DNA of 64,000 nt from Cenarchaeum sp. (GTDB taxonomy: Archaea > Thermoproteota > Nitrososphaeria > Nitrososphaerales > Nitrosopumilaceae): positions 1,824,001-1,888,000 of the forward strand of contig CBDESU010000001.1 in assembly GCA_965242695.1 (NCBI GenBank), given 5' to 3'. Shown piece by piece: positions 9,889 to 64,000 of the stretch. The translations under genes and the position numbers were made by a program. The first letter of the stretch is position 1. Each line of letters opens with the position of its first letter. The notes beneath the pieces are model-generated. The model made no database searches and was not told the origin of the DNA. It was given only the letters and a program-made list of their open reading frames with translations.

Positions 9889-10188
9889 TTGGCCAAGAGG
9901 GTGCTGATCGACGAGGGGAAGAGCCAGATAGAGTCGAAGCATCACGACAAGATACACCGCGACTATGTAGAAGTGCTCCACATCGGGGGCGACGGAGCCC
10001 CCGCTGCGGGGAGCAGCGATGCGAAGATCGCGGACTTCTGCGAGGACAAGTGCTGCGACCTGCTGACGGGCGACAAGAGGGCGTACACAAAGCTGCTAGA
10101 GGTAGACCGCATCGAAGAGGTCCGCATCTCAAAGTACGTCGTCGACGGGGATTCGACCCAGCAGGTATACCGGATACGCATGCACTGA
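9889..10188 (+). CDS. PIN-like (DUF5615/Mut7-C type) protein
   Basis: RVLIDE...SDAKIADFC...LLTGDK acidic-residue pattern of DUF5615-type PIN domains. Confidence 0.65.
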   Translation: MAKRVLIDEGKSQIESKHHDKIHRDYVEVLHIGGDGAPAAGSSDAKIADFCEDKCCDLLTGDKRAYTKLLEVDRIEEVRISKYVVDGDSTQQVYRIRMH

Positions 10189-10249
10189 GGAGGGGCGGGC
10201 CGCCGCGGCGGCGGCAGGCGCGGTAAAAAAAGAAGCATGGTGATGAGCG

Positions 10250-10603
10250 TCACTTGAACGACTCGATCTTCTTGATGATCTTCCGGTGGTCGTAGTCGGC
10301 CATGCACGTGATGTAGAACAGGTGCTTGGCCCCTGCCGGCATCACGAGGCGCTTGACCAGCTCGTACTCGGCCAGCGTGTACTTGCACTTGCCGAGCTTG
10401 CGGGCCAGCTCCTTGCGCTCCTTCATGTTGCGGGCCGAACGCACCAGGGACTTTTGGCTCTCCGACGGCGTGAGGGCGTTCTTGACGGCGGGGCTGCGCG
10501 CGCTGTAGATCAGCTCGCCCTTCATGTCGCAGATGGTGACCACACGAACCTTGTCGCTCATGCGGAGTATCTTCTTGACGGCGTCTTGTACCTCGACTTC
10601 CAT
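10250..10603 (-). CDS. Thaumarchaeal roadblock/DUF6659-like protein
   Basis: ILRMSDKVRVVTICDMKG...LGKCKYTLAEYELVKRLVMP. Confidence 0.85.
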   Translation of the reverse strand: MEVEVQDAVKKILRMSDKVRVVTICDMKGELIYSARSPAVKNALTPSESQKSLVRSARNMKERKELARKLGKCKYTLAEYELVKRLVMPAGAKHLFYITCMADYDHRKIIKKIESFK

Positions 10604-10718
10604 TGGGCTGTACGCCCTACCAATATGTGATAAAGGTTTCCTTGCCGCTCCGCGGGACGAGCGGGGCCCGAGGGCCGGCGGGCGGCGCCAGCGGCGGGCC
10701 GGGCGGCGGCATGCCCAC

Positions 10719-23909: not shown

Positions 23910-24161
23910 ATATCAGTTTCGCCGCGCCATGCCGGCCCGAGACCGGGGGCAGCGCGGGCCAAGCGCCGTCCCTGCAGGCTCGATGAGGAGGGGGCGCGGC
24001 GCGGCGCGGCAGGCCCCAAGAGGACGGGGCAATGTGCGAATCCATCCTAGGCAGCACGGCGCATGCGGGAGGCGCGAGGCCGGGCATGCGCCGCCGGACG
24101 GACCCGGGAAGAGGCGGCCGCGCGCGCCATGCCTATAAGCGGACGGCGCGGCGGCGCGCCG

Positions 24162-24878
24162 TTGATCCACATTGCGATCCACTTCACCACTGGCCAGTAC
24201 AGCGCAAGGCCGTGGGGCGTGAAAGAGGGATACGATCGCCACGAATGGCCCCCGTCGCCGTACAGGATTGTGCGGGCTACCGCAGCCGCATGGAAGTACA
24301 ACCTGCCGGACATCGCAGAGGACCGCTTCTACGCGGTCGTCCGGCGCCTGGCATCCGAGCTCCCGGTGTTCGGCCTGCCGAGGGCAGGGCGCATGGCAGG
24401 CGGCGGCGAAGGCGGGAGCGGGCGGCCCGCGCCGTGGCGGATCGACCCCGGCCAGGCCGTCCACATAGTCTGGCCGAGCGCCGCCCTTGCCGGCGGCGAG
24501 CGGCGCACGCTGTCGGACATCCTCGCCCATGTGCACTACCTGGGGCGGACCGAGTCGTGGTGCGAGATGCGGCTTGGCGGCGGCGGCCTCAACGGCGGAG
24601 TGCAGGACCATGGGATTGACAGCGGCGGTTGCGATCAGGCGGCGTCGCCGCCGTGCCGCATCAACTGCCGCCCGTACGATCACGAAAAAAGCCCGGGCCG
24701 CCGCGTCGTGCCCGCGCGCGTGATCGTCCCGAGGCCCGACATAACCATGGAGGACGTGTACAGGAAGGAGTTCCCGTCCGACAAGGAGGCCGCAACGGCG
24801 TGCCCCGACGGCGGAACGGCCGTGCCGTACCTGATCGACCGCGAGGCGGCCGGGCCGCGCCCTGCCGGCGAAGGGTAG
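24162..24878 (+). CDS. csb2: Orphan N-terminal (Cas5-like) half of type I-G/I-U CRISPR protein Csb2
   Basis: IAIHFTTGQYSARPWG...EWPPSPYRIVRA...LPVFGLP...VHIVWP...HYLGRTESWCEMRL matches the Csb2 motifs EWPPSPxR and YLGRxES as I recall them; TTG start with tataag about 25 nt upstream. Confidence 0.8.
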   Translation: MIHIAIHFTTGQYSARPWGVKEGYDRHEWPPSPYRIVRATAAAWKYNLPDIAEDRFYAVVRRLASELPVFGLPRAGRMAGGGEGGSGRPAPWRIDPGQAVHIVWPSAALAGGERRTLSDILAHVHYLGRTESWCEMRLGGGGLNGGVQDHGIDSGGCDQAASPPCRINCRPYDHEKSPGRRVVPARVIVPRPDITMEDVYRKEFPSDKEAATACPDGGTAVPYLIDREAAGPRPAGEG

Positions 24879-24908: not shown

Positions 24909-27900
24909 TCACTTTGCGGCCGGCGCCGTCGCCGCGGGGGCCGCCGGCACGCCGCGCCGGTTGTACCTGACGACGTGCGAGGCGCCGCCGGCCTTTGGGA
25001 ACACGCCGTACACCTGGTCTGCCTTTGAGATGAGCAGGTCCTTGTGCGAGACCATTATGAACTGGCTCGACTCGGACCTCTTCTTGAGTATGTCCGCGAG
25101 CCGCTGGGCGTTCGGGCCGTCGAGGCTCGCGTCGATCTCGTCGAATATGTAGAACGGCGACGGGCGCAGCTGCTGCAGCGCGAGCGCAAAGACGACGGCG
25201 GCGAGCGTCTTTTCGCCCCCGCTCGTCGACGTCGACTCGCGCTTGGCCTTGCCCGGGAACTGGAGCATGTACAGCACCCCCGAGCTGAATATGTCGTCCT
25301 CGTTCTCGAGCTCGAGCCACGCGTTGCCGCCGTCCATCATTCCCGAGAACGCGATGCGTATCTCCTTGTCGACCTTGTCGAACGCGTCAAGGAACGTCTG
25401 GCGCTTGTCCTTTTCGACGGACTCTATGAACTCTACGATCTTGTTGCGCTCGGCCTCTAGCTCGTTCCTGCGCGTCGACATGCTGCGGTACCCGTCCGAG
25501 ACCCGGGCGTACGACTCGGGCGCCTTTGCGTTCAGGTCGCCGAGCGAGCGCAGCTCGGCCTCTAGGTCGCGCACCGTCTGCAGCGCATCGCCTCCCCGGC
25601 CGCCCCCTCCCAGCTCCGCAGCCTCGGCCTCGGCGGCCGCGGCGGCCTCGCCGAACCCCGCGCGCTCGAGGACTGCTCGCAGGCGCACCTCCTCGGCGTC
25701 GAGGCCCTCCAGGTCGCGCCGCACAGAGTCCGACGAGCGCTCGGCCGTGCTGATCACGCGCGTCAGATCCTTGTCGCGGCCGTTCAGGTCGGACAGGGCC
25801 CCGTCGTAGTCCTTGATCGTAGAGGCCCACGCGCCGCCGCTCTCGATGACCTCCTGCTCGCGCTCGCGCAGCCCGTCAAGGCGCCGCCTCGCCCCGGCCC
25901 GCTCCTCAGCAAGCCCGCCGATCCTCGACTCGTGGCCGGCCCGCTCCGACGAGGCGGCCGCCTCGGCCCCGCGCAGCGCCTCGGCGTTGCGCCTGCCGGC
26001 CGTTGCCTCGGCCTCCAGGTCGGCGGCTCTCTTTGACGCCGCGGCGTACGCGTCGACCGCGTCCGTGCGCGCCTTTTCGGCACCCACGCGCACCGCATCG
26101 GCCGCATCGAGGTCGGACGCTATCGCATCCAGGTCGGCGCCGCCGTCGGCGGCCAGGGCCGCCTCGGACGCCTCGGACTCGAGCGAGGCCGCGGCCGACT
26201 CGTGCCGCTCGGCGTCGGCGATCAGGCCGGCCCGCTCGGCGGCGAGCTCCTCGAGGCGCCCGGCGAGGCGGCCTAGGGTCGAGCCGCGCTGGCCCGTCTG
26301 CCACTCGAGGTCCTCGAGGCCGCGGTCCGCATCGGCTAGCATGTCGCGCGAGACGTCGCGGCGCTCGGCCTGCCGCTCGATGTCGGCGTCGAGCCGGCGC
26401 AGGTCGGCCTTTTTCCTTTCCATGTGACGGCGCAGCAGGCCGATCGAGCGCAGCAGGCCGTCGACGGACGTGCTCATCGATATGATCTTTGTCAGCTTTG
26501 ATATGCGCGAGTTCACGTCGACTACGACGGCGGCCGCGTTGGACTCGAAGAACTCGCCGTCGACGGACACGGCGCGGTAGCCCCTCCTGGACAGGGCGTA
26601 CGCGTCGTCCTTTGTCCTCGCCACGACGATGCTGCCGAACAGGAACGACTTTAGGCGGGCGTGCCCCGGCCCGCACCTGACAAGGTCCGACAGGACGCCG
26701 ACCACGCCGGGCCCCTCCGGTGCGTCCATCGACACGTCTGGGAGCGCGTCGAGCGGTATTATCTTGAGCTTTGGGAGGCGCCGGTCGCGCACGTACTCGG
26801 CCAGCCCGACGAGCGTCGCAAAGTCGCGCACGACCGTCGCCTTGAGCCAGTCCGAGGCGGCCGCCAGGACGGCCCTCTCGTGCTCCCTGTCCCACTCGAT
26901 CAGCTCGTACGCGAGCCCGATCACCCCGAGCTTGCCGGCGTTGTCGCGCAGCCTTGCCGCCGAGTAGTCCTCGTGCATAATGTCCTTGACGAGCTTTATC
27001 TTGGCGTCGAACTTTGATCCGGCGCTAGTCGACTTGTCGAGCAGCAGCGACAGGTCGTCCATGTCCCGGACGGTCCGCTCGCGCCTGCCCTTGAGCCCCG
27101 ATATCCTGCCGTCGACCGTCTCGACCGAGGCGGCGTGGTTTGCGCGCACGGCCTCTAGGCGCCTGCGCAGGCCGAGCAGCTTTGCATGCTGCTCGCGGTA
27201 CGCGCCGTGCCTCTTGGCGTTCTCGCCCTCCTTGGCCTCGACGTCGGCGAGGCGCGCGCGGGCCCTCGAGGCGCCGAGGCGCGCCTCGCCGAGACGCCCG
27301 GCGATCTCGCTTGCCCTCTTGTCGGCCTCGGACTTTGCGCGAAGCGCATCGGACTGCCTTGCGAGCACGGCATCCCGCCTTGTGTTCGCCTCGGAGGCGC
27401 GCCCGTCGGCATCCGTCCTCGCCGACTCGGCGGCGGCAAGGTCGGCCGCCGCCGCGGCCGACTGCTCGGCCGCCGCCGCGGCCGACTGCTCGGCATCGGC
27501 GAGCTCGGAGCGCATGCGCGGCAGGCCCTCGTCGATGCGTTCGACGGCCCTGCGGGCCGCCGACAGGCGCGCATCGGACTCTTCGAACGCCCGCACGGCC
27601 TCGCTAAGCTCGGACTCTACAATGGCCTTTTTCCTGTTGTACTCGTCTACCTGGCCCATAAAGTCGGCCTTTTGCGCCTCGATCTCGCCTATCCGCCCCC
27701 GGACGGTGTCGCGCTCGTCGCGCGCCCTCCCCATGCGGGCCGCAAGGTCGTCGTCCTCGGCCGCCTTGGCGTCGCGCTCCGAGGCGATCTCGGCGAGGCG
27801 CCTCGACGCCGTGATCGCCTGGAGTCGGCGAATCTCCGAGTGGAGCATGTCGTGGCGGAGCTTCAGGTTGCGCTCCTCGTCGAGCTCGTCGATCTGCTTC

Positions 27901-28508
27901 TTTATCTCGTCCATCTTGGCTAGGGCCACCTCGAGCCGGCGGTCCGCATCGTCGAGCTCCTTGAGGGCCTTTTCCTTGCGCTCGTCGAACTCGGACAGGC
28001 CGATCAGGTCCTCTATGGACTTGCGCTTTTCCTCCGGCGTAAAGTCCGAGATGCGCGTTATCGTGTTCTGCTGGACGGCGTTGAGCTGGTGGAGGCGGGC
28101 GCTGGCCACGTCGAGCAGGTCGACGACGCTGCCGCGCGGCGTCCTCTTCTTGTTCAGGTAGTAGGCCGAGTCGCCGTTGGCATCGAGCTCGCGCGATATC
28201 TCGACGAGGTCCGAGTCTACGGGTATGCGCCTGTCCGCGTTGTCGAGGTGCACGCTGACGCGGGCCGGGTGCTTGCCGCGCCCCGACCCCTCCCCGTCGG
28301 GATCGTACAGGAGCTGGCCCATCCGGCCGACCCGCATCGTCCTCGGCTTGTTCTCGCCGGTGGCGAACGTGATCGCGTCGAGTATGTTGCTCTTTCCCGA
28401 CCCGTTGGCCCCCGCCAGCGATATCAGGCCCGGCTGGAAGTCGATGACCGTGTTCTTGTACCCGAACGACTTGAATCCGAATATCTCGACCTTGCGGATG
28501 TAGACCAC
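24909..28508 (-). CDS. smc: Chromosome segregation protein SMC
   Basis: GFKSF, GANGSGKSN, coiled coils, hinge region, SGGEKT, PFYIFDEIDASLD. Confidence 0.97.
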   Translation of the reverse strand: MVYIRKVEIFGFKSFGYKNTVIDFQPGLISLAGANGSGKSNILDAITFATGENKPRTMRVGRMGQLLYDPDGEGSGRGKHPARVSVHLDNADRRIPVDSDLVEISRELDANGDSAYYLNKKRTPRGSVVDLLDVASARLHQLNAVQQNTITRISDFTPEEKRKSIEDLIGLSEFDERKEKALKELDDADRRLEVALAKMDEIKKQIDELDEERNLKLRHDMLHSEIRRLQAITASRRLAEIASERDAKAAEDDDLAARMGRARDERDTVRGRIGEIEAQKADFMGQVDEYNRKKAIVESELSEAVRAFEESDARLSAARRAVERIDEGLPRMRSELADAEQSAAAAAEQSAAAAADLAAAESARTDADGRASEANTRRDAVLARQSDALRAKSEADKRASEIAGRLGEARLGASRARARLADVEAKEGENAKRHGAYREQHAKLLGLRRRLEAVRANHAASVETVDGRISGLKGRRERTVRDMDDLSLLLDKSTSAGSKFDAKIKLVKDIMHEDYSAARLRDNAGKLGVIGLAYELIEWDREHERAVLAAASDWLKATVVRDFATLVGLAEYVRDRRLPKLKIIPLDALPDVSMDAPEGPGVVGVLSDLVRCGPGHARLKSFLFGSIVVARTKDDAYALSRRGYRAVSVDGEFFESNAAAVVVDVNSRISKLTKIISMSTSVDGLLRSIGLLRRHMERKKADLRRLDADIERQAERRDVSRDMLADADRGLEDLEWQTGQRGSTLGRLAGRLEELAAERAGLIADAERHESAAASLESEASEAALAADGGADLDAIASDLDAADAVRVGAEKARTDAVDAYAAASKRAADLEAEATAGRRNAEALRGAEAAASSERAGHESRIGGLAEERAGARRRLDGLREREQEVIESGGAWASTIKDYDGALSDLNGRDKDLTRVISTAERSSDSVRRDLEGLDAEEVRLRAVLERAGFGEAAAAAEAEAAELGGGGRGGDALQTVRDLEAELRSLGDLNAKAPESYARVSDGYRSMSTRRNELEAERNKIVEFIESVEKDKRQTFLDAFDKVDKEIRIAFSGMMDGGNAWLELENEDDIFSSGVLYMLQFPGKAKRESTSTSGGEKTLAAVVFALALQQLRPSPFYIFDEIDASLDGPNAQRLADILKKRSESSQFIMVSHKDLLISKADQVYGVFPKAGGASHVVRYNRRGVPAAPAATAPAAK

Positions 28509-28722
28509 GATCGTGCCGCCCCAGCCTGCGTAATTAACGCTTGCGATCGCCAAAGATGCGGCGGGCGGGGCTGGCGGGGGAGGCGGGCGGCCGCGGCCCG
28601 GGGGAGCCGCGGCCTCGCATGCCCCTCCCGGCGCCGCCGCCGGCCAGAGGCGGGCACGCTCATCGCCGCGATCGCCCCACGGCGGGGCGCCCGGCGGGGC
28701 GCCCGGCGGCGGCCGCGGGCCC

Positions 28723-29781
28723 TCAGCGCCGGCCCACCTCGCATGCGAACAGGCGCTCGGCATGCCCGCCGTACGGGTCTGTCCTGCCGGCGGCAAACTC
28801 CCTGTGCCCCGTCTCGTGCACCCTCACCCGCCCGCGCCTCCCAAGGATCCTTGCGATCTCCGCGTCGCTGATGCGCGAGTTCGAGCGGACGTCCCGCCTG
28901 TCCGACGTGTTGTTGTACGACAGGAATATGTACCGGCAGTCGGCGTGCATGACCAGGTCCTCGAGGGCCGCGGCCGCATCCCGCAGGCAGTAGCGGCTCT
29001 TGAGGTGGCTTCGGTCCATCTTCTGGGCCTTGCCGCGCGTCTCTGGCTTTTTCCAGGCCGCGGCATTCTCGAGAAGGTGGTACGCATCGCAGTACTGGCG
29101 CGAGTTGTAGGGGGGATCCAGGTACAGGACGTCGACGCTCTCCCTGCGGACCAGGTCGTTGGCATCCATGTTGCAGACCAGGTTTCCGGCGTTGGCGCCG
29201 CCCTCCCCGGGGCAGGGCGCCAGCAGTTCGAGGGGCCGGGCCCGGCCCATCCGGCCCCGGTACGCGTCGTAGTGGCCCACGGTGTTTGCCAGTCGGTCCA
29301 TGGCGTAGAGCAGCGAGCATATCAGCGCGCACCTTTCGCCCTCGCCGGATGCGATCGCCTCGATCTCGTCCCGCACGGCGCCGATCTTTCGCGCCGTCTC
29401 CACGGTGAAGAACGTGCCGCCGTACCGCCTTGAAAAGTAGTTGTCGCCGCCGGCCGGCAGGGCGTTGAGGCGCCGTATCGACTCGGAGAGCCTCCCGCGG
29501 CTCGCCCCGCCGTCGGCCAGGAACGTGCGCAGCGCCACGTAGTTGCTGAACAGGAGGTCGTTGGACACGATGCGCGTGTGCCCGTCGTTGAGCGCCTGCG
29601 AGACGGCGCCCGTCCCCGCAAAGGGATCGCACACGGAGCCAAAGCGTCCGCACGTCTCGGCGATCACGCCGCGGATGAACCCCGTGATCCTCGCCTTGCA
29701 CCCCATGTAGCGGCGGCTCTTGAGCTCAAAGCAGCGCGGCGCGGGGGCGTCGCACTCCCAGAGGCCCTCGGCGGGGGTCAT
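28723..29781 (-). CDS. Solitary N6-adenine DNA methyltransferase (D12 class, FokI-like)
   Basis: RRYMGCK, DPFAGTGAVS, YLDPPYNSRQY, FLSYNN; no adjacent endonuclease. Confidence 0.9.
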   Translation of the reverse strand: MTPAEGLWECDAPAPRCFELKSRRYMGCKARITGFIRGVIAETCGRFGSVCDPFAGTGAVSQALNDGHTRIVSNDLLFSNYVALRTFLADGGASRGRLSESIRRLNALPAGGDNYFSRRYGGTFFTVETARKIGAVRDEIEAIASGEGERCALICSLLYAMDRLANTVGHYDAYRGRMGRARPLELLAPCPGEGGANAGNLVCNMDANDLVRRESVDVLYLDPPYNSRQYCDAYHLLENAAAWKKPETRGKAQKMDRSHLKSRYCLRDAAAALEDLVMHADCRYIFLSYNNTSDRRDVRSNSRISDAEIARILGRRGRVRVHETGHREFAAGRTDPYGGHAERLFACEVGRR

Positions 29782-30086
29782 CGGGGCGGCCTCCGCGGGG
29801 CGCCGCGGCCGCGGCGCGCGGCGCACTCCGATGCTCCGCGGGCTCCCGCAAGGGCGCGGCCGCGGCGCGCGGCGCGCGGGCGGGCAGGCGCGGCTGGCAT
29901 CCCCGCGGGCCGCGGCGCGCAGCCCCCCGCCCGCATGCGCGCGCGGGCGGGCAGCCGGCGCGCCGTCCCGAGCAGGGCCATGCCCGGCGCGGAGCGCCCC
30001 GATGTTAAAGCGTATTCGGGGGCCGCCTGCGCGCCGGTTCCGACCGGGATTCCACGAGCCGCGCACGCGAGTCTTGGGACGGCCCG

Positions 30087-31229
30087 CTATTCCGGCCGGC
30101 GCCCCTGCCGCCCCTCGACGAAATCCTCGCACGCCCTCTTTGCATCAGGATCGCTCATCTGCTCGGGCGGGTGCTTCATGAGGTACGCGCTGGCCGGGAC
30201 TATGGGGCCCCCAACGCCGTCGTCTAGCGCTATCCGGGCAAGGCGCACCGCGTCGATGACGATGCCGGCCGAGTTTGCCTTGTCGTCGACGTCCAGGCGC
30301 ACCTCCATGTTGTACGGCACGTTGGCCCACTGCCTGCCCTCTATCCTCATGAACATCAGCTTCGTGTTGCCCAGGAACGGGACAAAGTCTGACGGGCCCA
30401 CGTATATCTGGTCGTCCTCGAGCCTCTCGGAGAGCTGGCTCTGCACGCTCTCGGTCTTTGATATGCGCTTGCTGGCCAGGCGCTCCTGCTCCTTCATGTT
30501 CAGAAAGTCCGTGTTGCCGCCGACGTTGATCTGGTAGGTCCTCTCTATGCGGGTGCCCCGCTCGCTGCACAGGCGCGCGAGCGTCCGGTGCACGATCGTC
30601 GCGCCCACCTGGCCCTTTATGTCGTCGCCTACGACGGGTATCCCCTTCTCGGCGAACCGGCCGGCCCACCCGGGATCCGACGCTATGAACGACGGTATGC
30701 AGTTGACAAAGGCGGCGCCCGTGTCCAGGCAGACCTGCGCCCAGAAGCGCGTCGCCTCGTCCGAGCCGACAGGGAGGTACGAGACGATGATCTCGGCGCC
30801 CGTCTCGCGCACCACCCTGCGCACGTCCTCGGCCAGCTCCTCGTCCGTCCTGGTCTGCCTCACCGGATTCACCTTGTTCTGCACCCATATGCCGACGCCG
30901 TCTAGCTGCGGCGCCTCGTGGACCAGCGCGCCGGTCTTGGGCATCTGCTCGCGCGGCACCCAGTCGACCATGTTCGGCGACTCGTAGATGGCCTCGTTGA
31001 CCTCCTTGCCGACCTTGTTCTCGCCGACGTCGAACCCGCACACAAAGTCGATGTCGTGTATGGTGTAGCCGCGTAGCCGCTCGTGGATGATCCCGATCAC
31101 CGACTGCGACGGGTTCCTGCGGTAGTACTCTATCCCCTGTATGAGGCCCGAGAAGCAGTTGCCGACGCCGACCAGTCCGACCCTGATCCTCTCGCCGCGG
31201 CCCCCGCCTTGCCCGTCCCCGCCCGACAC
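30087..31229 (-). CDS. ino1: Myo-inositol-1-phosphate synthase
   Basis: VGVGNC, SYLPVGS, GDDIKGQVGAT, GGNTDFLNM, DKANSAG, YLMKHPP. Confidence 0.95.
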   Translation of the reverse strand: MSGGDGQGGGRGERIRVGLVGVGNCFSGLIQGIEYYRRNPSQSVIGIIHERLRGYTIHDIDFVCGFDVGENKVGKEVNEAIYESPNMVDWVPREQMPKTGALVHEAPQLDGVGIWVQNKVNPVRQTRTDEELAEDVRRVVRETGAEIIVSYLPVGSDEATRFWAQVCLDTGAAFVNCIPSFIASDPGWAGRFAEKGIPVVGDDIKGQVGATIVHRTLARLCSERGTRIERTYQINVGGNTDFLNMKEQERLASKRISKTESVQSQLSERLEDDQIYVGPSDFVPFLGNTKLMFMRIEGRQWANVPYNMEVRLDVDDKANSAGIVIDAVRLARIALDDGVGGPIVPASAYLMKHPPEQMSDPDAKRACEDFVEGRQGRRPE

Positions 31230-35840: not shown

Positions 35841-38800
35841 CTACCCGTCCCTGTTCTCGCCGGTGCGGTACGAGACGAGCGTCCCGAGCTGGTGCGCTAT
35901 CCTGGCCCGCTGCGGCACCGTAAATCCGAGGATGCCCAGCACCTCCCCATCCAGCCGCTCCCTGTCAAGGTCGCCGCAGTAGGCATTCCATGCGGCGCCG
36001 AGCCTGCCTACGTCGCGGGAGTCCATCCTGCCAAGGTCCGGCACCGGCGCCTCCGCCAGGTCGGCGATCAGCACCTGCAGGGCCCCGCCGCCTGCCACGT
36101 GCCCGCTCTTCTCCAAGTGCAGCGCAAACCAAGAGGATGCAAGGTACGCGAGGAGCGCGTCGGTGTGCTCGGGCCGGCTCGGCGTAAAGCCCGCAAAGTT
36201 GTCCCTCGCGTAGAAGCGGCCGTTGTTCCTGTACGCCTTGAGGCGCCTGTCGATGAAGCGGCCTAGGAAGACGGCCGGCGGGCCGTCCCGCAGGCCGAGC
36301 GAGTACCACAGGTCCCTCCCCCTGAGCGATGCAAGATCGGCAATGCCCCTCTCCTTGCGCGAGGATCCCTTCTTCGGCACGACGGCGGCCGCCTCGGCAT
36401 CCTCGATGTACCGCAGGACTCCGGCGCCGCCGACGGCCCTTGCGAGGCGGCCCTTTGGAAGATCGACGCTCAGTAGGTGCTCGCTCGCCCTCTGGCCCCC
36501 GAGGCAGCCGTCCGCAATGCCGTCGGACAGCACCGGCCGCCTGAACCGGGCCGGGATCGAGTACTCTCGAACAGCCTCGCGCGTGAGTACAAAGAACTTG
36601 TTGCGACCTGTCTTGATCCCGCTCTCTAGCTTACCGACCTTTCTCAACGGTACGGTCGGGACGCGTATATGCGAAGGGGGGGGGGGGCGCAAAGTGAGCA
36701 AACCAGTTGCCCGGCACGGTCGTCCTCTGGAGCTTCCTAGCCACCATATGCTGCGTCCAGTCGTCAAATGCGCGGATCCCTGGGATCGCCGCAAGGAGTA
36801 TCTGGTGGCCATCGCAGGACCTCGCTTTGGTGAGGAGCGTGACCACCGTCTTGATGTCGGCGTCGTCAAAGACGTTGAAGAGGGGACGCAACAGGGCGTC
36901 GATTCTACAGTTGTCAAGCATGGTGCGCTGCAGCTGCAACCCATAGTCATGATTGAGCCACCCGTCGCTTGCGATAAATCCCAGGCGGCCACCATTCGCT
37001 AGGCTTGCAAGCGAATGGTAGTAGAAGTAGCTGCTCAGGTCGCTTTTACGTGGTATCTCAAAGTCCGATGCAATCTCTAGCACCGAGCCACCTGGAAGCG
37101 CCAGCGAATTCTTGTCTGCAAGGCCTTCCTGCCGCACGTATGGTGGGTTTCCAATTATAATGTCGAATCCCTGTGCCGCCTGGAACGTGTACGGGAACAA
37201 TGAGGGCCATCCACCATCGGGGATGTCTTTGACGCTGTCCCGCACAACTATGTTCCGAGACAAGTCGGGCAGGCGCTCGAACAGTGACGCCGTCATCAGG
37301 CACAGCGACAGGCGCGTTATCTCAACCGACTGAGGGTTCACGTCTATTCCGTACAGGTTGTTGCGCACTATCTCGAGGGGGGAGGCGTCCGCAATGTCCG
37401 ATTCTAACGTGCCGCTTGCTAGCCCTCCGTGGGCGTTCCTGTGTGCTCGGATTTCTCTGTATATGTCAAGCAGGGTAGTAGCCGCTTCGATCAGAAATGC
37501 TCCCGATCCACACGCAGGATCAAGTATCCGGATGTTGCGCAGCCGCTCCTCAAGGCTTGCAATGTTATCTGCATACTCTGCCACAAGGGAGGCAGGATCC
37601 GCCGCGCTGCCCAACTTCGATAGCCATGGTATAATCGTGCTACGGCATATGTGACGCGTCACGTATGCAGGGGTGTAGAACACCCCCTCACGCTTACGCC
37701 GCGACGAGCCGATGCCAAGTAGGTGCTCGATTTCATGTATGGACTGTTCAAATATGTGGCCAAGTATAGTGACGCGTATCTGGCTCTTGAAGTCATATGA
37801 GGACATTGCGAGTAAGTTTTTGATGATTGGGTTGAGATCGTCGTGCCGCCGGACCGCTGCCTCTATCTTCACCTTGAACTCCCACGAACGACGCCGCTTT
37901 TCAGAGTTAAATTCGTCGAAGAATCCGGGAGGGCGCAGGTCCATTATCCGGGCTCCCCGGGGGAGTGGTTCTACAAATAGACCTCCATTGAACCCGAATA
38001 TTTGGGGCGAGCGTGATCCCTTGTCAAATCCTGGAAACAGTTCATCTGTCAGGTATGACCACACCCGTTTTGAACGGTCGCCTAGTCGCCCGTTCAGCAC
38101 GTCGATCACTCCGTCTGCAAACATATCCGAGTCGCGTACCAAGCCCGAATCTTGGGCGAAGAATATAAAGATAAGCCTGTTGAGCAGCGTCTGTGCTGCC
38201 GCGACGGCGGCACCTCGTTTCACTCCAGACGTTTCGAACTCCCGGATCAACATAAGGCGTGTCTTTCCATACAGATCGTAAAACTCGTCCGTGAGTGCCT
38301 TGTCTTCGTTTATCGACTTTGTGTGAGCACGCTCGACAAAGCCGGATCCAATGTTCGCCTTCCCGAACACGCCTATGAACTCTCGCAGTTTTTTAGGGTT
38401 GTTCCTTACACTCTCAAAGTCGAACTTATAATACTTTGAATAACCATGTTTTTTAGTTATTAAAATAAATTTGCGGTAGTTAGTACATATGCCGTATTCA
38501 AGGTCGATCTTTCCCATGTAGTCCCAAGCCTGCTTGATGGGGGTCGAATGTTCTCCTTCCTTGTGGTGTTGCCGGGCGAAAAGATCGCGCGTCTGTGTGC
38601 CTTTTACTTCAAAACATCCGAGCGGGCGGCGTTGTGAATCGTAAAATTGGAACTCGACGTTGTCCGATTCATATTTGATGTCATCCACCTTGTATCCGAG
38701 CAGTCTATCGAGTATGCACGACATGAAGATGGGGTAGTTGGACACCTCCTTTTGTAGACGGTCTTCTTTGAGCAACGTGAGCCACTCGGACGCCGCGTCG

Positions 38801-38874
38801 TGCTGGTCCCTTGTGATCTTCACGTCAGCGCACATGTTCTCGAGTGTCGCCGGTGAGAAGAGATCATCGGACAT
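35841..38874 (-). CDS. Type IIG (Eco57I-like) restriction-modification enzyme, copy 1, frameshifted at a C12 tract
   Basis: N-terminal nuclease motif CFEVKG, ILDPACGSGAFL, IIGNPPY. The frame stops at 36631; the specificity domain (GIKTGRNKFFVL...GGGALQ) continues in another frame to 35841. AT-richer than flanks. Confidence 0.88.
36676..36687. repeat. G12 (C12 on coding strand) homopolymer at the frameshift of RM copy 1
   Basis: gcgaa-G12-cgcaaa; a C11 tract would fuse the two frames. Confidence 0.9.
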
Positions 38875-39097
38875 ACAAGTCACCACGCCGTGGTGCCATA
38901 GATGGCCAAGGAAAGCCGCTGCCACATCCACCGCGCAACCCTCCACGGTGCAGGGGCCTGCAAGGCAGGGCGCCTTATCCAGGCGCGGTGGCGTCGGTAG
39001 GTGTACATAGCGATCACGGCGCCGCTGACGAGTAGCCCCGTTAAATCCCTTTCAAGGCAACGCGGCGTTTCTTATACGCCCCGCCCGGGAGGGGGCC

Positions 39098-40270
39098 GTG
39101 GAAGAGTCCGTTCGCATCCGCAGGGACATCGAGGCGAGGTGGAACGAGCACCTGTCCAGGCACGGCGCCCTGTTCTCGTCGGATGCGGTGAGCGGTACGA
39201 CCCCGCCGACCGTCTTCGTCGGCTCGCACGGCTACCCCCGCCTGCGCGTGGGCCCCATGGTGCCGCCCGTCCACGGCGACACGTCCATGATGGACAGCCC
39301 GGAGCGGTGGTCCGGCCGCACCCTGGCCGAGATCGTCTCGGACAGGCTTCGGATGGTGCGCGGCGTGCGCACGGTGCGGGCCGACGCGCCGGCGGACCGC
39401 TACGTCGAGGACCTGCAGGGGCTGGCCATGTCCGGCGGGCCGGCAGACTCTGACCTGCGGCTCGACGCGCCGGCGGCCCCGGTGGCCCTTGCCGACGGGT
39501 ACTCGGCGCCGTTCGGCCCCGTCGGCAGCGTCAAGAGCGCGTCGTACTCGGGGCTGTCGGCCCCGCCGAGGGCCGTCGAGCGGGCGTACTACGACACCGA
39601 CAGGGGCGCCGCCGGCGCCGTCATGGACCTGTACGAGGCGGGCATCGAGGTGTCTAGGATACACCGGCTCCTGTCCATCGGCATGCTCGGCCGGAAGAAG
39701 AGGAGGAGGCTCGTGCCGACCCGCTGGAGCATTGCGGCGACCGACTCTGCCATATCCGAGGCGCTGTCGCGGCGCATACTGGACTATCCGCTGATCGACT
39801 CGCATATGGTGTTCCACCACGAGCACCTGGGCAACCTCTTCTCGGTCGTGCTGTTCCCGAGCCGGTGGATGTTCGAGATGATCGAGGCGTGGTACGCCGC
39901 CGACGGGACGCCGGGGTTCGGGGCGGACCGCGAGGGTGCGCGCGGCATGGGCCACAGGCAGCCGGCCATTGCGGGGGCGTACTTTGCCGGCAGGCTCGCC
40001 GTCGCCGAGCACCTAGAGCGCATCCAGGCGCAGGCCGGCGCGCTAGTCCTGCGCGAGATAAGGCCCGAGTACGCGGTGCCCGTGGGCGTGTGGCAGGTGA
40101 GGGAGGGCGTGCGGGCCGCGATGGCCGGAGGGGGCGCGGCTGCGCCCTCCCTCGGCGAGGCCGTCGGGGCGGCGTGCTCCCCGATGAGCATCTCGAAGGG
40201 CGAGTGGCTCGCGCACGGGCAGGTGATGCAGATGGCCCGTCAGCGGACGCTTGCCGACTTTTTCGGCTAG
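39098..40270 (+). CDS. nreA: Archaeal DNA repair protein NreA
   Basis: PPTVFVGSHGYP, RRLVPTRWSIAATD, PVGVWQVRE, C-terminal PIP box QRTLADFF. Confidence 0.93.
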   Translation: MEESVRIRRDIEARWNEHLSRHGALFSSDAVSGTTPPTVFVGSHGYPRLRVGPMVPPVHGDTSMMDSPERWSGRTLAEIVSDRLRMVRGVRTVRADAPADRYVEDLQGLAMSGGPADSDLRLDAPAAPVALADGYSAPFGPVGSVKSASYSGLSAPPRAVERAYYDTDRGAAGAVMDLYEAGIEVSRIHRLLSIGMLGRKKRRRLVPTRWSIAATDSAISEALSRRILDYPLIDSHMVFHHEHLGNLFSVVLFPSRWMFEMIEAWYAADGTPGFGADREGARGMGHRQPAIAGAYFAGRLAVAEHLERIQAQAGALVLREIRPEYAVPVGVWQVREGVRAAMAGGGAAAPSLGEAVGAACSPMSISKGEWLAHGQVMQMARQRTLADFFG

Positions 40271-40404
40271 GCGGCAGAGGCGCGGCGGCCGGGCGCCCCG
40301 CCGCCGCAACCGGCAGTCCCGCCGGCAGGGGAAGGCGGCGGCCGCCGGCAAGTCCAGCCCCGCGCATCCCCGTTTGCATCCCGCTGTCGCGGCGCTCTCC
40401 GCAT

Positions 40405-40974
40405 CTACAGAATGACAAAGTTGAGGGATGCAAAGTCTGGATCGCTGGCCAAGGCGCTAAACTGCCGGTCCCGGGTGCAAAAATTTTTCACTCTGTAGTC
40501 CCGAGCCGCAAGCGCGTGCATCATGTCGAGGATGCCAAGGCTCCTGTAGATGATCCCCATTTTGCCGTGCGGCTCGAAGCGGCCCCCGTGCCTGATCAGC
40601 ATGCGCAGGGCCAGGGTTGCGTACTGTCCTGCATTATTCGAAGGGTTGCGAATTCGAACTTTGCCCATGTCAGACAAGAGCGAGAGCCGACGTAGAAAGA
40701 GTGCCACAGCCTTCTCCGCCACTGCCCATGCCGCCTGTAGGTCCGGCGCATTGCTGCCGCACACCCTAGCCAGATCTCTCGCCGTTTCGCGCCTAGTCAC
40801 TTGGATTACTTCGCTGATGACAAAATCGGACACGTCGACCGTCCTTTTTCCGTCATGCAGGTCGTCGAACAGGGGGCGGCAGGCATCGTAGTGCGGATCC
40901 TTCCTCCCCAGCGAGAATGCGGTCCACACATTGGAGTCCCAGTAGTCGTCGCTACGACCCTCTTCCGCGCACAG
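40405..40974 (-). CDS. PIN-domain (VapC-like) toxin
   Basis: YWDSNVW, SDFVISEV, LGILDMMHALAA, FCTRDRQF; frame open upstream to CTG 40974, preceded by GGAGATGATCC. Confidence 0.8.
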   Translation of the reverse strand: MCAEEGRSDDYWDSNVWTAFSLGRKDPHYDACRPLFDDLHDGKRTVDVSDFVISEVIQVTRRETARDLARVCGSNAPDLQAAWAVAEKAVALFLRRLSLLSDMGKVRIRNPSNNAGQYATLALRMLIRHGGRFEPHGKMGIIYRSLGILDMMHALAARDYRVKNFCTRDRQFSALASDPDFASLNFVIL

Positions 40975-41281
40975 ACCGGATCATCTCCAACGAGTCGCAG
41001 TCGGAACCAAAGTACTTGCTGAGGCAGCCATCAAACTCTGCCGGCTCTTTGAGATCCTCGGGGCCCATGCCCACCAAGGCGAGAAGGTACTCGCGCATGG
41101 CCTTGTTCTCCATCTCCACGTACGGCCGCTCCCACTCGCGCTGCGCCGCCACCAACCTTCTCAGCTCGTCCTTCGGTATCTCCGCGGAGCGGTCAATGAC
41201 CTCTCGGTTGAAGCGGGCGACCGAGTCGTGGTACTCTTGGGGCAGGGGGTCGATGTACACGGGCTCATTGCGTACTCCCAT
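40952..41281 (-). CDS. Putative antitoxin, copy A (overlaps the PIN gene)
   Basis: 109 aa ending DSLEMIRSVR (VapB-like tail); cttaata about 25 nt upstream. Confidence 0.7.
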   Translation of the reverse strand: MGVRNEPVYIDPLPQEYHDSVARFNREVIDRSAEIPKDELRRLVAAQREWERPYVEMENKAMREYLLALVGMGPEDLKEPAEFDGCLSKYFGSDCDSLEMIRSVRGRGS

Positions 41282-41394
41282 GAAAGGCCGGCGCATGGGC
41301 CTCATATTAAGATTCCACCGCTAGGCCGAAGTCTACAGGGGCGGCGGGGCATAGACAGTAGCGGAGGCGGCGCGCTGGCGTCCCCGGCGCACCG

Positions 41395-41724
41395 CTACGA
41401 CCCTCTTCCGCGCACAGCCCTGACCATCTCCACCGAGTCGCAATCGGAACCAAAGTACCTGCTGAGAAATCCTGGGCCATCGGGCGGCTTCTTGAACTCC
41501 TCGGGGTCTATGCCCACTAGGGCGGCAAGGTACTCGCGCATGGCCTTGTTCTCCATCTGCATGTACGGCCACCTCCGCTTGCGCTCCGCCTCCATCAGCC
41601 TTTCCAATTCGTCCTTTGGTATCTCCGCGGAGCGGTCAATGACCTCTCGGTTGAAGCGGGCGACCGAGTCGTGGTACTCTTGGGGCAGGGGGTCGATGTA
41701 CACGGGCTCATTGCGTACTCCCAT
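41395..41724 (-). CDS. Putative antitoxin, copy B
   Basis: Paralog of copy A at a 443-bp period, with its own cttaata box. Confidence 0.7.
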   Translation of the reverse strand: MGVRNEPVYIDPLPQEYHDSVARFNREVIDRSAEIPKDELERLMEAERKRRWPYMQMENKAMREYLAALVGIDPEEFKKPPDGPGFLSRYFGSDCDSVEMVRAVRGRGS

Positions 41725-41847
41725 GAAAGGCCGGCGCATGGGCCTCATATTAAGATTCCACCGCTAGGCCGAAGTCTACAGGGGCGGCGGGGCATAGACA
41801 GTAGCGGAGGCGGCGCGCTGGCGCCGGCAAGTGCCCCCGGCGCACCG

Positions 41848-42180
41848 CTACGGCCCTCTTCCGCGCACAGACCTGATCATCTCCAACGAGTCGCAGTCGG
41901 AACCAAAGTACTTGGCAAGGAACCCCGGGCCCCCGAGTGGTTTTTTGAACTCCTCGGGATCTATGCCCGCCAAGGCGGCAAGGTACTCGCGCATGGCCTT
42001 GTTCTCCATCTCCACGTACGGCCGCTCCCACTCGCGCTGCGCCGCCACCAGCCTTCTCAGCTCGTCCTTTGGTATCTCCGCGGAGCGGTCAATGACCTCT
42101 CGGTTGAAGCGGGCGACCGAGTCGTGATACTCTTGGGGCAGGGGGTCGACGTACACTGCCTTATCATTGCGTACTCCCAT
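41848..42180 (-). CDS. Putative antitoxin, copy C
   Basis: Third paralog; upstream box altered to cttgata. Confidence 0.7.
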   Translation of the reverse strand: MGVRNDKAVYVDPLPQEYHDSVARFNREVIDRSAEIPKDELRRLVAAQREWERPYVEMENKAMREYLAALAGIDPEEFKKPLGGPGFLAKYFGSDCDSLEMIRSVRGRGP

Positions 42181-59687: not shown

Positions 59688-62600
59688 TTAGGTGCCGCCG
59701 CCCGCACCCTGTTTTGACGCGCGCATGCGCCTCTCTGTGAGGCGGCCGAGTTCGGCCCTGACAGCTCCCATCTGCCGCGCCATGCCTAGCGCCGCAAAGA
59801 CGGCTCTGTCGAGCCTTTTTCGATCCAACGTATCGCAGTATTCCGACCACGCGCCCTCCATCTTTTGCATCGCCTTCTGTGGAAGCTTGTCAAAGTCGGG
59901 CACCCGAGTCTTTGCCAGCACGTGGTTGTCTATGCGCAGGGCACCCCCGCCGAGGGGCGCAGCATTTTTTTCCATGTCTAGGGCAAAGAGTGAGGATGTA
60001 AAGTAGGCAAGGAATCCGTTCGTATGCGTTTTGACATCAGGAGTAAAATGGAGGTAAGTGTCAAGGGCTAGGTACGATCCACGCCCTTGTCCGCCCGCTC
60101 CATTCTCATACACCCTGATCGTTCGGTCGTTGATTCTGCTTATGAAGATCGGGGGCGGGGGAGGGGCCGGCAGAGAGTACCACGGATTTCTGTTTGCAAT
60201 AGTCGGCAGTTTGGGCAACAGGACACGGGTAGAACGTCCCCTCTTTTTTGGCAGAACTGTCATCCCTTCTCCGCGCTCAATATACTTTTTTACAAGGCGT
60301 CCGTGCGTAGTTTTTGCTAGCACACCTTTGCTATCCTGGACGACAAGGATGTATCGTACGGCATGCCTCACCTCAAGGCGTGGCAGCTCGCCGCCCGTCA
60401 CTACCGGTCGCAAATAGTCCGAATGTATCTTGTGATCTCTAGCGGCGTCTCGCGTCATGACAAAAAAGTCGTTACAGCCAGTCCCTATTCCACGCTTCAA
60501 GTGCCCTGTTGCATCAAGGCGTGTTGTGGGAAAAGGGGGGGGGGCGGTGGTCGGCCCATCAAAATATAGAGACCAGTCCTTCCCTACAAGGTTTGTCCCG
60601 GAGACGCGGGCGGCAATATCCAAGGATGGCGCCGCAAAATCCAAGTCGGATCCAACGTTGGCAAACAGGATGTCCCTATTTTCATCAGGAGATGTTCTCA
60701 TGAGTAATACTATTACGGTGGTTATGAGGGCATCGGAGAACACCTTGAATCTCGGAGATACCAATTCTTCTATTTGAGAATTGGAAAGAAGCATCTGCCT
60801 CAATGGTTCGCCGTATTTGGCGCGGAGCCAATTGTCGCTGGAGATAAACCCGAGCAGCCCTCCCTTGCACAAACGTCCCAGCGAGTGGTAGTAGAAATAT
60901 GTGCTCAGGTCGGCTGTTTTTGGAATGGCAAAGTCGCCCGGAAGTGTAAGCGGCATCATGTCCGGCAGTGTGGCCATCGCACGTTTAGTCGGGCCAGTTA
61001 GCAACTCCTGGCGCACGAACGGCGGATTGCCAATGATGACTGAAAACCCCGGGTTTTCACCTGCGAATACTGTAGGAAATGTCCGCTCCCAGTCTAGCCC
61101 ACCTTGATCAGTGTCCACCACAACGCTGTTGCCAACCACAATGTTGTTTGACAAGTCAGGAAGTTTTTCGCCATCGGCCGCTGTCAAGAGAAACAGGGAG
61201 AGGCGCGCAATGTCGACTGACTGAGGGTTTATGTCTATTCCGTATATACAGTTGCGAACAATCTCAGAAATACGCCCTGCATCTATAGACTGATCGAGGC
61301 CGTTGTCTTTTTCGTCGCCATTGTATTTATGGCGTACAATTTCTTCGTGGATCTTGATCAGTGTCCTAGCCGCACGTATCAGAAATGCACCCGACCCGCA
61401 TGCAGGATCAAGTATTCTTATGCGGTTCATGCGGTCATGAAGTCCATCAAGGTCACCGTTATACTCTTTTACAAGTCCAGCAGGATCCAGTGCATTCCCG
61501 CTCGGTGAAAGATATCTTATGATCGTGCGACTGCAAATGTACTCGGTCACATACTCTGGTGTGTAGAATATGCCCTCCCGCTTACGCGTCACGGCACTTC
61601 CATCTAGCAAAATATCCAGATCTGTTACTGAATTTTCGAATATATGGCCCAGTATATCGACACGTATTTGACTTTGAAAGTCGTACGAGGATATCTTTAG
61701 GAGATTGCCAATCACAGGGTTCAGGTTATTCACGCTACGCACCGCCTCTGCGATACGTGGTTTATACTCCCAAGAGTCGGCACCGTGACGGCTAGGATCT
61801 GGGCCCAGTTCGTCAAAAAATTCTTTTTTTCTTTTGTCGGGGAAGAATGCGAGCTTTTGTAATGACTTATCAAAGAGGCCACCGTTGAACGCAGTTATGT
61901 AAGGATCTGCTTGCCCAGTCTCGAATGCGGTGAACAGCTCTTCGACAATGTAGTTCCACACGCGTCGCGTGTTGGTCTTGACGTTGCCTTTTAGTATGCC
62001 CACAACGTCGTCGTCAAACATTCCGTCTTTCACCAAATTTGCATCTTCTGCGAAGAATACAAACATAAGGCGGTTAAGAAAAGTCTGCGCTGTAGAAACT
62101 GCATCGTTGTTTACAAGTCCCTTGTCCTTGAATTCATGTATAAGCATTAAGCGCGTCCTACTGTACAACTTGTAAAACTCGTCGGTGAGGCCCCGATCAG
62201 CGTCGGCGGACCTAGACTGTGCGACATATGGAAAGCCAGCTGCTAGTGATTGTATAGAGAATATCCCCAAAAATTCACGCAGTGCCTCAGAATTGTGCCG
62301 GATGGATTGGAAGTCAAAAATGTGATATTTTGTTAGTGCAAATTTTTTGGTAATCAGTACAAAATCCCTGTAGTTGGTGCATATGCCATATTCGGCGTTT
62401 GTACTCCCCATGTAATTCCATGTCTGCTTGACGGGAGTCTCATGTTCTTTTTTTTCTTTGTGCTGCGGCGTAAAGAGGTTTTTTGTAGACGTGCCTTTTA
62501 CCTCGATGCAGGCCACCGTCTTGCCCTTTTCAGCATAGGTAAAATCAACAAAATTCTCTTCGTGCTTTATCTGATCCTCATTATAACCAAGCAAGTCTAC

Positions 62601-62765
62601 GAGTATGATCTTAAAAAAGTTTATGTAGTTTTTCTTTTCGTTTTCTAATAGACCCTCGTCAAGCATTTTTAGCCATTTTTCGGCAGCGGAACGCTGCCGA
62701 GAGTTGACCACTGTGTTAGCACACATTTCCTTGACGGTGTGCGGATCCAACAGTCTCTCAATCAC
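59688..62765 (-). CDS. Type IIG (Eco57I-like) restriction-modification enzyme, copy 2, intact
   Basis: VDF...CIEVKG nuclease, ILDPACGSGAFL, IIGNPPF, specificity domain GIGTGCNDFFV...GGGALR; colinear paralog of copy 1; clearly AT-richer. Confidence 0.92.
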   Translation of the reverse strand: MIERLLDPHTVKEMCANTVVNSRQRSAAEKWLKMLDEGLLENEKKNYINFFKIILVDLLGYNEDQIKHEENFVDFTYAEKGKTVACIEVKGTSTKNLFTPQHKEKKEHETPVKQTWNYMGSTNAEYGICTNYRDFVLITKKFALTKYHIFDFQSIRHNSEALREFLGIFSIQSLAAGFPYVAQSRSADADRGLTDEFYKLYSRTRLMLIHEFKDKGLVNNDAVSTAQTFLNRLMFVFFAEDANLVKDGMFDDDVVGILKGNVKTNTRRVWNYIVEELFTAFETGQADPYITAFNGGLFDKSLQKLAFFPDKRKKEFFDELGPDPSRHGADSWEYKPRIAEAVRSVNNLNPVIGNLLKISSYDFQSQIRVDILGHIFENSVTDLDILLDGSAVTRKREGIFYTPEYVTEYICSRTIIRYLSPSGNALDPAGLVKEYNGDLDGLHDRMNRIRILDPACGSGAFLIRAARTLIKIHEEIVRHKYNGDEKDNGLDQSIDAGRISEIVRNCIYGIDINPQSVDIARLSLFLLTAADGEKLPDLSNNIVVGNSVVVDTDQGGLDWERTFPTVFAGENPGFSVIIGNPPFVRQELLTGPTKRAMATLPDMMPLTLPGDFAIPKTADLSTYFYYHSLGRLCKGGLLGFISSDNWLRAKYGEPLRQMLLSNSQIEELVSPRFKVFSDALITTVIVLLMRTSPDENRDILFANVGSDLDFAAPSLDIAARVSGTNLVGKDWSLYFDGPTTAPPPFPTTRLDATGHLKRGIGTGCNDFFVMTRDAARDHKIHSDYLRPVVTGGELPRLEVRHAVRYILVVQDSKGVLAKTTHGRLVKKYIERGEGMTVLPKKRGRSTRVLLPKLPTIANRNPWYSLPAPPPPPIFISRINDRTIRVYENGAGGQGRGSYLALDTYLHFTPDVKTHTNGFLAYFTSSLFALDMEKNAAPLGGGALRIDNHVLAKTRVPDFDKLPQKAMQKMEGAWSEYCDTLDRKRLDRAVFAALGMARQMGAVRAELGRLTERRMRASKQGAGGGT
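60535..60544. repeat. G10 (C10 on coding strand) homopolymer in RM copy 2, in frame
   Basis: aaaa-G10-cggtgg encodes APPPF at the same domain junction as the copy 1 tract. Confidence 0.9.
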
Positions 62766-62770
62766 TTTAG

Positions 62771-62778
62771 TCACCTCC
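62771..62778 (-). promoter_or_regulatory. Shine-Dalgarno GGAGGTGA for RM copy 2
   Basis: Minus strand reads aaGGAGGTGActaaaGTG; 5-nt spacer to GTG 62765. Confidence 0.75.
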
Positions 62779-62937
62779 TTTCATGAATAGATCGCCTTCC
62801 AAATGCCCACGATCCCGTACCGCGTGTGCCGTGCGCTACTAACCCGCGCCCAACGGGATCCTGGGCCGCGCCTGCCTGAAACGACGTGCTGTGCACGCTG
62901 TCTAGGCATGTCACTGGCGCCGCTACCAACATTGGCA

Positions 62938-63999: not shown

Positions 64000-64000
64000 G

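Follow-up and report, generated by a model that had tools for sequence, protein, structure and literature searches.

A predicted Cas5-only relative of Csb2 encoded away from the type I-G CRISPR–Cas loci of a Cenarchaeum genome

Why should a gene that resembles only the Cas5-like part of Csb2, the Cas5–Cas6 fusion protein of type I-G CRISPR–Cas systems, stand by itself beside smc? We examined this question for an open reading frame (ORF) in a 64-kb stretch of Cenarchaeum DNA (hereafter the window, meaning the whole stretch analysed), which corresponds to C1:1824001-1888000 of a 3.89-Mb genome (G000) and carries the ORF at C1:1848129. By its small-subunit rRNA, the genome is archaeal, with 1450 bits for the archaeal SSU model and 1086 bits for the bacterial one. 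The earlier note on this DNA had described a 238-aa ORF with EWPPSPxR and YLGRxESW motifs, its own TATA-like box, a host-like GC content and an orientation convergent with smc, and all of these features are present. The motifs read EWPPSPYR at residues 39-46 and YLGRTESW at residues 137-144 (249-aa numbering). The open frame spans window positions 24063-24878 on the plus strand and encodes 249 aa plus a stop from ATG 24129 or 238 aa from TTG 24162. The elements of the gene, in window positions, are as follows.

24133-24138, plus strand: TATA-like box CTATAA, about 26 nt upstream of TTG 24162, read from the sequence
24129-24878, plus strand: longest plausible coding sequence from ATG (protein P0001), 249 aa plus stop, GC3 0.86
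24162-24878, plus strand: probable true coding sequence from TTG, 238 aa

The true start is probably TTG 24162, giving a protein of 238 rather than 249 aa, for four reasons. First, the TATA-like box is suitably placed for this codon, as archaeal TATA boxes sit near -26. Second, the stretch containing the box, CCATGCCTATAAGC, is identical in the orthologue from a related genome (G004) and everything downstream of it is kept, whereas the DNA further upstream has diverged and contains indels. Third, the equivalent 'MI.I' position is where many members of the short family described below begin in an alignment of 27 sequences. Fourth, residues 1-8 of the AlphaFold2 model are disordered (pLDDT <50), with the first strand starting at residue 13.

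The composition of the gene is that of its host: GC1, GC2 and GC3 are 0.69, 0.57 and 0.86, with a GC3 of 0.90 for smc and a GC of about 0.70 for the window. The smc gene (24909-28796, minus strand) converges on it with 30 nt between the two stops; since the stop at 24876-24878 is followed so closely by smc, no continuation in another frame is possible. The neighbours in the window are housekeeping genes, encoding ProRS, an ABC ATPase, a TPR protein, a Zn-ribbon protein, SMC, a D12 methyltransferase and inositol-1-phosphate synthase. We considered whether the 256-aa antisense ORF at 23913-24683 (minus strand) could be the real gene and rejected it: with a GC3 of 0.71 (versus 0.86 on the sense strand) and a GC1 of 0.82, it is probably a spurious frame of high-GC DNA. 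We likewise rejected an origin as a piece of a degraded cas locus, as the flanks are housekeeping genes and, in another genome of the genus (G003), smc and the Zn-ribbon gene are direct neighbours with an empty gap of 79 nt. A search of the window with Rfam at gathering thresholds returned nothing. Elsewhere in the window, GC falls from the background of about 0.70 to 0.60-0.64 at 36001-42000 and to 0.50-0.58 at 60001-64000; these low-GC stretches may be islands of foreign DNA.

Comparison with Cas profile models bore out the homology to Csb2, in the N-terminal part only. The protein scored 48 bits against the NCBIfam Csb2 model TIGR02165 (cut-off 45), matching in two stretches at profile positions 3-40 and about 101-151 of 492, and it matched PADLOC Cas56g (PDLC01778) at 4.4e-28, again by the N-terminal part. 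On the protein, the Csb2 model matches cover residues 13-86 and 104-153. Pfam gave no family for the short protein at E<=1, Cas5 families included, and a PDB sequence search with the family profile and the genome's own Csb2 as queries yielded no matches. When the family profile was run against 1.84 billion representative proteins, 1396 matched at E<=0.001; among the best 150 of these, most were 430-577 aa long and matched by their first 150-230 residues. The ORF had been said to end near the domain boundary of Csb2, and it does: short proteins stop 10-20 residues past the 'P.GS..V.Y' strand, the last of the Cas5 domain, at the point where the Cas6 domain begins in full-length Csb2 (alignment A2).

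We then compared the AlphaFold2 model of the short protein (pLDDT 79.3, pTM 0.79) with known structures. Foldseek returned five matches at E<=0.001, all of them CRISPR entries. The best match by VIA-align was 7tr6_P, a Cascade chain (Z 10.1, 186 residues aligned, model residues 11-249), followed by 4mjk_A (Z 9.5), the Cas5-HNH chain 8zlu_B (Z 8.3) and 4qyz_J (Z 7.2). The three top matches to Cascade chains (Z 10.1, 9.5 and 8.3) span model residues 9-249. We take the matched Cascade chains to be Cas5 subunits, for example 4qyz_J to be Escherichia coli Cas5e. Because the predicted fold matches these chains over its full length, the model indicates a whole Cas5 module rather than half of a fold, with an RRM palm and a second subdomain and without the Cas6 domain. 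Thus, the description of the ORF as a 'Cas5-like half' of Csb2 was right about the part of Csb2 to which it corresponds, but the wording understated what is predicted to be a complete Cas5 module. The predicted parts of the module, in window positions, are as follows.

24162-24578, plus strand: Cas5-like RRM core with EWPPSPYR, WKYN and YLGRTESWC (residues 12-150), from Csb2 model matches, invariant columns and secondary structure
24390-24431, plus strand: Gly-rich variable loop replacing the H.RH[YF].P loop of full-length Csb2 (residues 88-101; alignment A2)
24585-24650, plus strand: second Gly-rich low-complexity insert, in the closest relatives only (residues 153-174; alignment A1 columns ~190-220; pLDDT <50)
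24660-24839, plus strand: C-terminal subdomain of the Cas5 module with NCRP, MEDVY and AVPY (residues 178-237)

Within the Gly-rich variable loop, pLDDT drops below 50 at residues 92-95. The C-terminal subdomain aligns to positions ~170-225 of full-length Csb2 and lies inside the structural matches to Cas5 chains; strands were modelled at residues 180-182, 193-201 and 229-237, in a block with pLDDT 75-93.

A homologue search revealed that the window protein is one of a set of short proteins; it returned 26 clusters, none of them named, with lengths of 173-281 aa and identities of 96-37%. Thirty-one columns are invariant among 27 aligned short sequences; P0029, P0031, P0032, P0037 and P0085 are more distant members. 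The motif EWPPSP is shared by 32 of 32 short proteins and 92 of 109 full-length Csb2 representatives, and Y[LF]G[RK]..S[WL] by 31 of 32 and 89 of 109, respectively. By contrast, WKYN is found in 31 of 32 short proteins and 0 of 109 full-length representatives, whereas the H.RH[YF].P loop, present in 69 of 109 full-length representatives, is found in none of the 32 short proteins, in agreement with the earlier observation of a Gly-rich linker in place of an internal loop. The window protein fits the resulting definition of the short family: about 190-280 aa, WKYN, no H.RH[YF].P loop and an end after the P.GS..V.Y strand. We rejected the idea that family members are fragments at contig edges, as they occur on contigs of up to 3.3 Mb and have consistent lengths. 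The largest metagenomic sub-group of the family is the P0023 cluster, with 96 members. A back-translated EWPPSP[YF]R-x8-WKYN pattern had no matches in metagenome contigs and none in viral contigs.

We built a quick IQ-TREE tree of 95 rows, comprising 17 short forms and 78 full-length N-domains (70 of the 109 representatives plus eight from loci). One branch, with an SH-aLRT of 96, separated 76 typical Csb2 N-domains from all 17 short forms; the two long-branch csb2 genes of the window genome fell on the short-form side. The starred branches of the tree force just one change of the 'short' label. Judging from the alignments and the tree, the short form is a separate, old clade and did not arise by recent truncation of the genome's own csb2 genes. 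One 229-aa protein in the typical clade, P0106, is likely a fragment, because it shares a 90% cluster with a 514-aa Csb2.

For nine clusters looked up in source databases (eight distinct proteins), no name was attached to the short-family proteins. A full-text literature search, judged by the beginnings of abstracts, turned up no paper describing such a short Cas5-only gene. By these comparisons, the short Cas5-only, Csb2-like family, as defined here, is conserved and unnamed.

To place the gene in its genome, we searched all of G000 for I-G genes and repeats. The window genome holds a complete type I-G system with a 330-repeat array, arranged as follows on contig C1.

1049207-1055665: locus A, with cas8g, cas3g, csb2 (470 aa) and cas7g
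1065868-1072420: locus B, with csb2 (812 aa), cas7g, cas8g and cas3g
1072688-1096369: CRISPR array, 330 repeats in 23.7 kb, flanked by locus B and cas2/cas4-cas1
1096642-1098658: adaptation genes cas2 and cas4-cas1

The two effector modules, the array and the adaptation genes lie 750-800 kb from the window ORF. The standard I-G gene set used for comparison is that of the Makarova classification. Across the whole genome, tblastn with 21 distinct cas queries, together with the repeat search, found nothing outside C1:1.049-1.099 Mb other than the window ORF. The statement in the earlier note that the 64-kb window contains no cas gene or array is therefore accurate, although its title, 'without a CRISPR-Cas locus', does not hold for the genome.

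We examined whether the host's own csb2 could be the source of the short gene and rejected this idea, as the two are too diverged: a tblastn search of the host genome for a paralogue of the short protein gave nothing beyond a 22-residue match, and hhalign of alignment A1 with the locus A Csb2 aligned 40 columns at a probability of 54. Locus A lies about 10 kb from locus B, and the 20-kb stretch examined around locus A (L009) contained no array. The csb2 gene of locus B (C1:1065868-1068306; L010:5868-8306, minus strand) is a single open frame of 812 aa in which one Cas5-like region precedes two consecutive stretches that match the Cas6 half of TIGR02165 (profile positions 302-491 and 252-491); because of these two matches, it appears to encode a Csb2 with a tandem Cas6-like duplication.

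Loci in related archaea linked the short gene to I-G cas genes. Among the 64 loci taken from genome contigs, 60 hold a Csb2 frame of 443-693 aa; other frames included a closed frame of 200 aa (L060) and a frame of 310 aa (L087). In four related genomes of the same GTDB family (loci L027, L100, L124 and L125), the short gene adjoins I-G cas genes. L027, from a metagenome-assembled genome (MAG) titled Nitrosopumilus sp., carries both forms in the order array, cas4-cas1, cas2, array, short gene (10001-10651), cas3g, cas8g, cas7g and csb2, so that the short gene stands directly upstream of cas3g-cas8g-cas7g-csb2. In L100, the short gene is directly upstream of cas4-cas1 and cas2. The order is csb2, an IS4/5 transposase, a 237-aa ORF and the short gene in L124, and csb2, a 92-aa ORF and the short gene in L125. 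The 237-aa ORF of L124 (11372-12085, plus strand; genome G767) lies directly upstream of the short gene with a 10-nt gap; its only matches, to PolB-type 3'-5' exonuclease domains, stay below threshold (E 0.003-0.005).

To evaluate how often the two forms occur together, we searched 401 genomes of the family with alignment A4. Matches were found in 19 genomes, with short frames in seven and long frames only in the other 12. A full-length csb2 accompanies the short gene in six of the seven short-bearing genomes; in the seventh, the short gene has cas4-cas1 as its neighbour. I-G genes were thus present in 7 of 7 short-bearing genomes, compared with 12 of the 394 others, a co-occurrence drawn from a small number of related genomes. 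The same family sample includes a low-GC MAG titled Nitrosopumilus sp. At the level of the order, a search of 301 genomes with alignment A1 revealed no further short form and only two other genomes, both with long frames; this search missed the full-length csb2 of G000 itself, so its sensitivity is limited.

Within the genus of the window, G000, G002 and G004 have the short gene and a full-length csb2, and G001 and G003 have neither. The first three genomes are 3.2-3.9 Mb in size, with a GC of about 0.70 in sampled stretches and I-G systems; the other two are 1.8-2.0 Mb, with a GC of 0.54-0.57 in sampled stretches and no csb2. Synteny between the window and G004 covers the genes for ProRS, the ABC ATPase and the Zn-ribbon protein, the short gene, smc and the methyltransferase gene. 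In G004, an extra 420-aa ORF encoding an ATPase of the AAA_21/AAA_15 type (AbiEii/OLD-like families), absent from the window, lies between the Zn-ribbon gene and the short gene (L017:7407-8669, plus strand). The copy in G002 shares 31-40% identity and sits in an unrelated neighbourhood. The orphan short gene therefore occupies two different chromosomal sites in the genus, and its frame is intact in three species. The I-G variants of these species differ, with the locus-A type in G004, two loci of the Csx17 type in G002 and both types A and B in G000. With different I-G variants in the three orphan-bearing species, no single partner system is obvious.

The earlier note had left three options for the ORF: a domesticated RAMP (RNA-binding) protein, a subunit or regulator that acts in trans for a distant I-G system, or an intact-looking relic. 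The presence of a distant I-G system in the same genome, the homologues inside I-G loci in four genomes and, within the genus, the restriction of orphans to species with I-G systems favour the trans-acting option. We put the probability at roughly one in two that the protein acts in trans with the I-G effector, as an accessory Cas5-like component or as a modulator, from a gene outside the cas loci. Counting against this reading are the absence of cas genes from the 64-kb window, the housekeeping neighbours, the fast evolution of the gene, its Gly-rich inserts, the missing loop motif, the differing I-G variants of the orphan-bearing species, the small set of related genomes behind the co-occurrence and the failure of the isolated Csb2 N-domain of Thioalkalivibrio sulfidiphilus to bind repeat, hairpin or 5'-handle RNA (PMC9638904).

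The housekeeping neighbours could instead point to a function outside CRISPR, such as RNA or nucleic-acid binding tied to the neighbourhood by smc. In favour of such a domesticated RAMP, the gene has a promoter-like element of its own and its neighbourhood is conserved between G000 and G004. The orphan-bearing species are also the three large, high-GC genomes of the genus, so that the co-occurrence with I-G systems may be phylogenetic and reflect only the shared ancestry of large-genome species. However, the G002 copy at a non-syntenic site means that there is no conserved non-cas partner gene, and both the distribution of I-G genes across the 401 genomes and the four relatives that keep the short gene inside cas loci speak against this explanation, which we consider unlikely.

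Comparison with the syntenic orthologue in G004 allowed us to assess selection. For the short gene, dN/dS was 0.49 (dS 0.47), with 0.35 over the first 150 codons, which make up the Cas5 core, and 0.76 over the remaining 95 codons; five neighbouring genes had dN/dS values of 0.11-0.42. Identity to G004 was 67-69% for the short gene, 85-93% for four neighbours and 70% for the methyltransferase. That gene, encoding a D12-class N6-adenine DNA methyltransferase by smc (28723-30132, minus strand), had a dN/dS of 0.42 and evolves faster than its neighbours. These values indicate that the short gene is constrained, though less than most of its neighbours.

The higher ratio over the last 95 codons, the low-complexity inserts and an evolution faster than that of most neighbours would suit an intact-looking relic, a leftover piece of Cas5 that drifts towards loss and has no present function. 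The dN/dS of the Cas5 core, a frame kept intact in three species at two independent chromosomal sites and a GC3 like that of a translated gene all argue against drift, as does the position of the short form in an old clade separate from host csb2. Conserved length across the 26 clusters, the 31 invariant columns and the overall dN/dS further weaken this option, leaving it improbable.

We next set the family against known systems. The N-terminal module of Csb2 (TIGR02165; Pfam PF09609 Cas_GSU0054; PADLOC Cas56g; type I-G, formerly I-U) is homologous to the short protein over about 215 residues, with the shared EWPPSP and Y[LF]G[RK]..S[WL] motifs, and in relatives the short gene lies within the same loci. 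The short protein differs in lacking the C-terminal Cas6 domain, which carries crRNA hairpin binding and the catalytic His, so that it would have no pre-crRNA nuclease or hairpin-binding part. The H.RH[YF].P loop is missing too, and the short protein bears a WKYN signature of its own and falls in a separate clade. Whereas csb2 is part of the I-G cas operon, the short gene of the window is outside any such operon, with the nearest cas genes about 750 kb away, although its homologues in L027, L100, L124 and L125 do adjoin cas genes. The stand-alone Cas5 proteins of I-A, I-B, I-C and I-E Cascades are of similar size and match the predicted fold over its whole length (Z 6.6-10.1), but sequence identity is only 6-16% and no Pfam Cas5 family matches. 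What defines Cas5 is that it binds the crRNA 5' handle; as a subunit of class 1 effectors it also caps the filament of Cas7 and touches the large subunit.

The closest experimental counterpart is the isolated N-terminal domain of Thioalkalivibrio sulfidiphilus Csb2 (residues 1-260), a laboratory-made construct that represents the same module (PMC9638904). It is an engineered fragment of a fusion protein, whereas the short protein belongs to a natural, separately evolving gene family. The Csb2 N-domain is reported to fold stably alone and to be needed for effector assembly, in a role called 'elusive'; the isolated T. sulfidiphilus domain did not bind repeat, hairpin or 5'-handle RNA, and the solved structure of the I-G effector lacks a Cas5 at the 5' handle (PMC9638904).

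On this background, we propose that the gene encodes a Cas5-only paralogue of type I-G Csb2. Family members stand at the edge of I-G cas loci in related archaea; in the genus of the window, the gene has moved to housekeeping neighbourhoods and is kept only in species with I-G systems. From the locus linkage and the co-occurrence, we infer that the short protein may still work in trans with the I-G machinery 750-800 kb away. It could act as an auxiliary Cas5-like component or as a modulator of effector assembly, contacting the Cas7g–crRNA backbone, Cas8g or both. One possibility is that it occupies the 5'-handle position, which is left without Cas5 in the solved I-G effector. A complex prediction for Cas7g of locus A (A5) and the short protein (A4) gave scores of 0.00 and 0.00, which count neither for nor against binding.

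The stronger form of this last idea is that the short protein is the 'missing' Cas5 of the archaeal type I-G Cascade. It would cap the crRNA 5' handle next to Cas7.1 and Cas8g, with full-length Csb2 at the 3' hairpin, and in this genus it would act in trans, encoded 750 kb away, on I-G modules that belong to more than one variant. We regard this specific assignment as rather unlikely.

An opposite effect on the same machinery is also conceivable, in which the short protein is a negative regulator or decoy that mimics the Csb2 N-domain, competes for docking on the Cas7g–crRNA backbone and so holds back effector assembly or sets its timing. The domain of which it is a paralogue is reported to be needed for complex assembly (PMC9638904), and the short protein lacks the loop conserved in 69 of 109 full-length Csb2 representatives. 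An intact full-length Csb2 is encoded alongside it in six of seven genomes, and within the genus the short gene has its own locus, apart from the cas operons. On the other side, in four genomes the gene is on the same strand as the cas genes that it adjoins, as would be expected of a subunit, and conserved motifs peculiar to the family, WKYN among them, speak for an independent function over plain mimicry. Nor was the family found on viral contigs: a search of these contigs with alignment A4 gave 16 pattern matches, none of which was confirmed, so there is no sign of a virus-borne copy in that collection. We find a decoy role quite unlikely, and a trans-acting accessory component or modulator of the I-G effector remains the reading that we favour.

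Type I-G is the type I effector reported to be without Cas5 at the crRNA 5' handle (PMC9638904), and a separately encoded Cas5-only paralogue offers a concrete protein to test. Within one archaeal family, the Cas5-only gene turns up repeatedly in I-G loci, and where it has left them it persists as an orphan. The paralogue might serve as an additional subunit, help the effector to assemble or act as a brake on it. Cas-derived genes can thus persist far from cas loci, where locus-based annotation leaves them unnamed.
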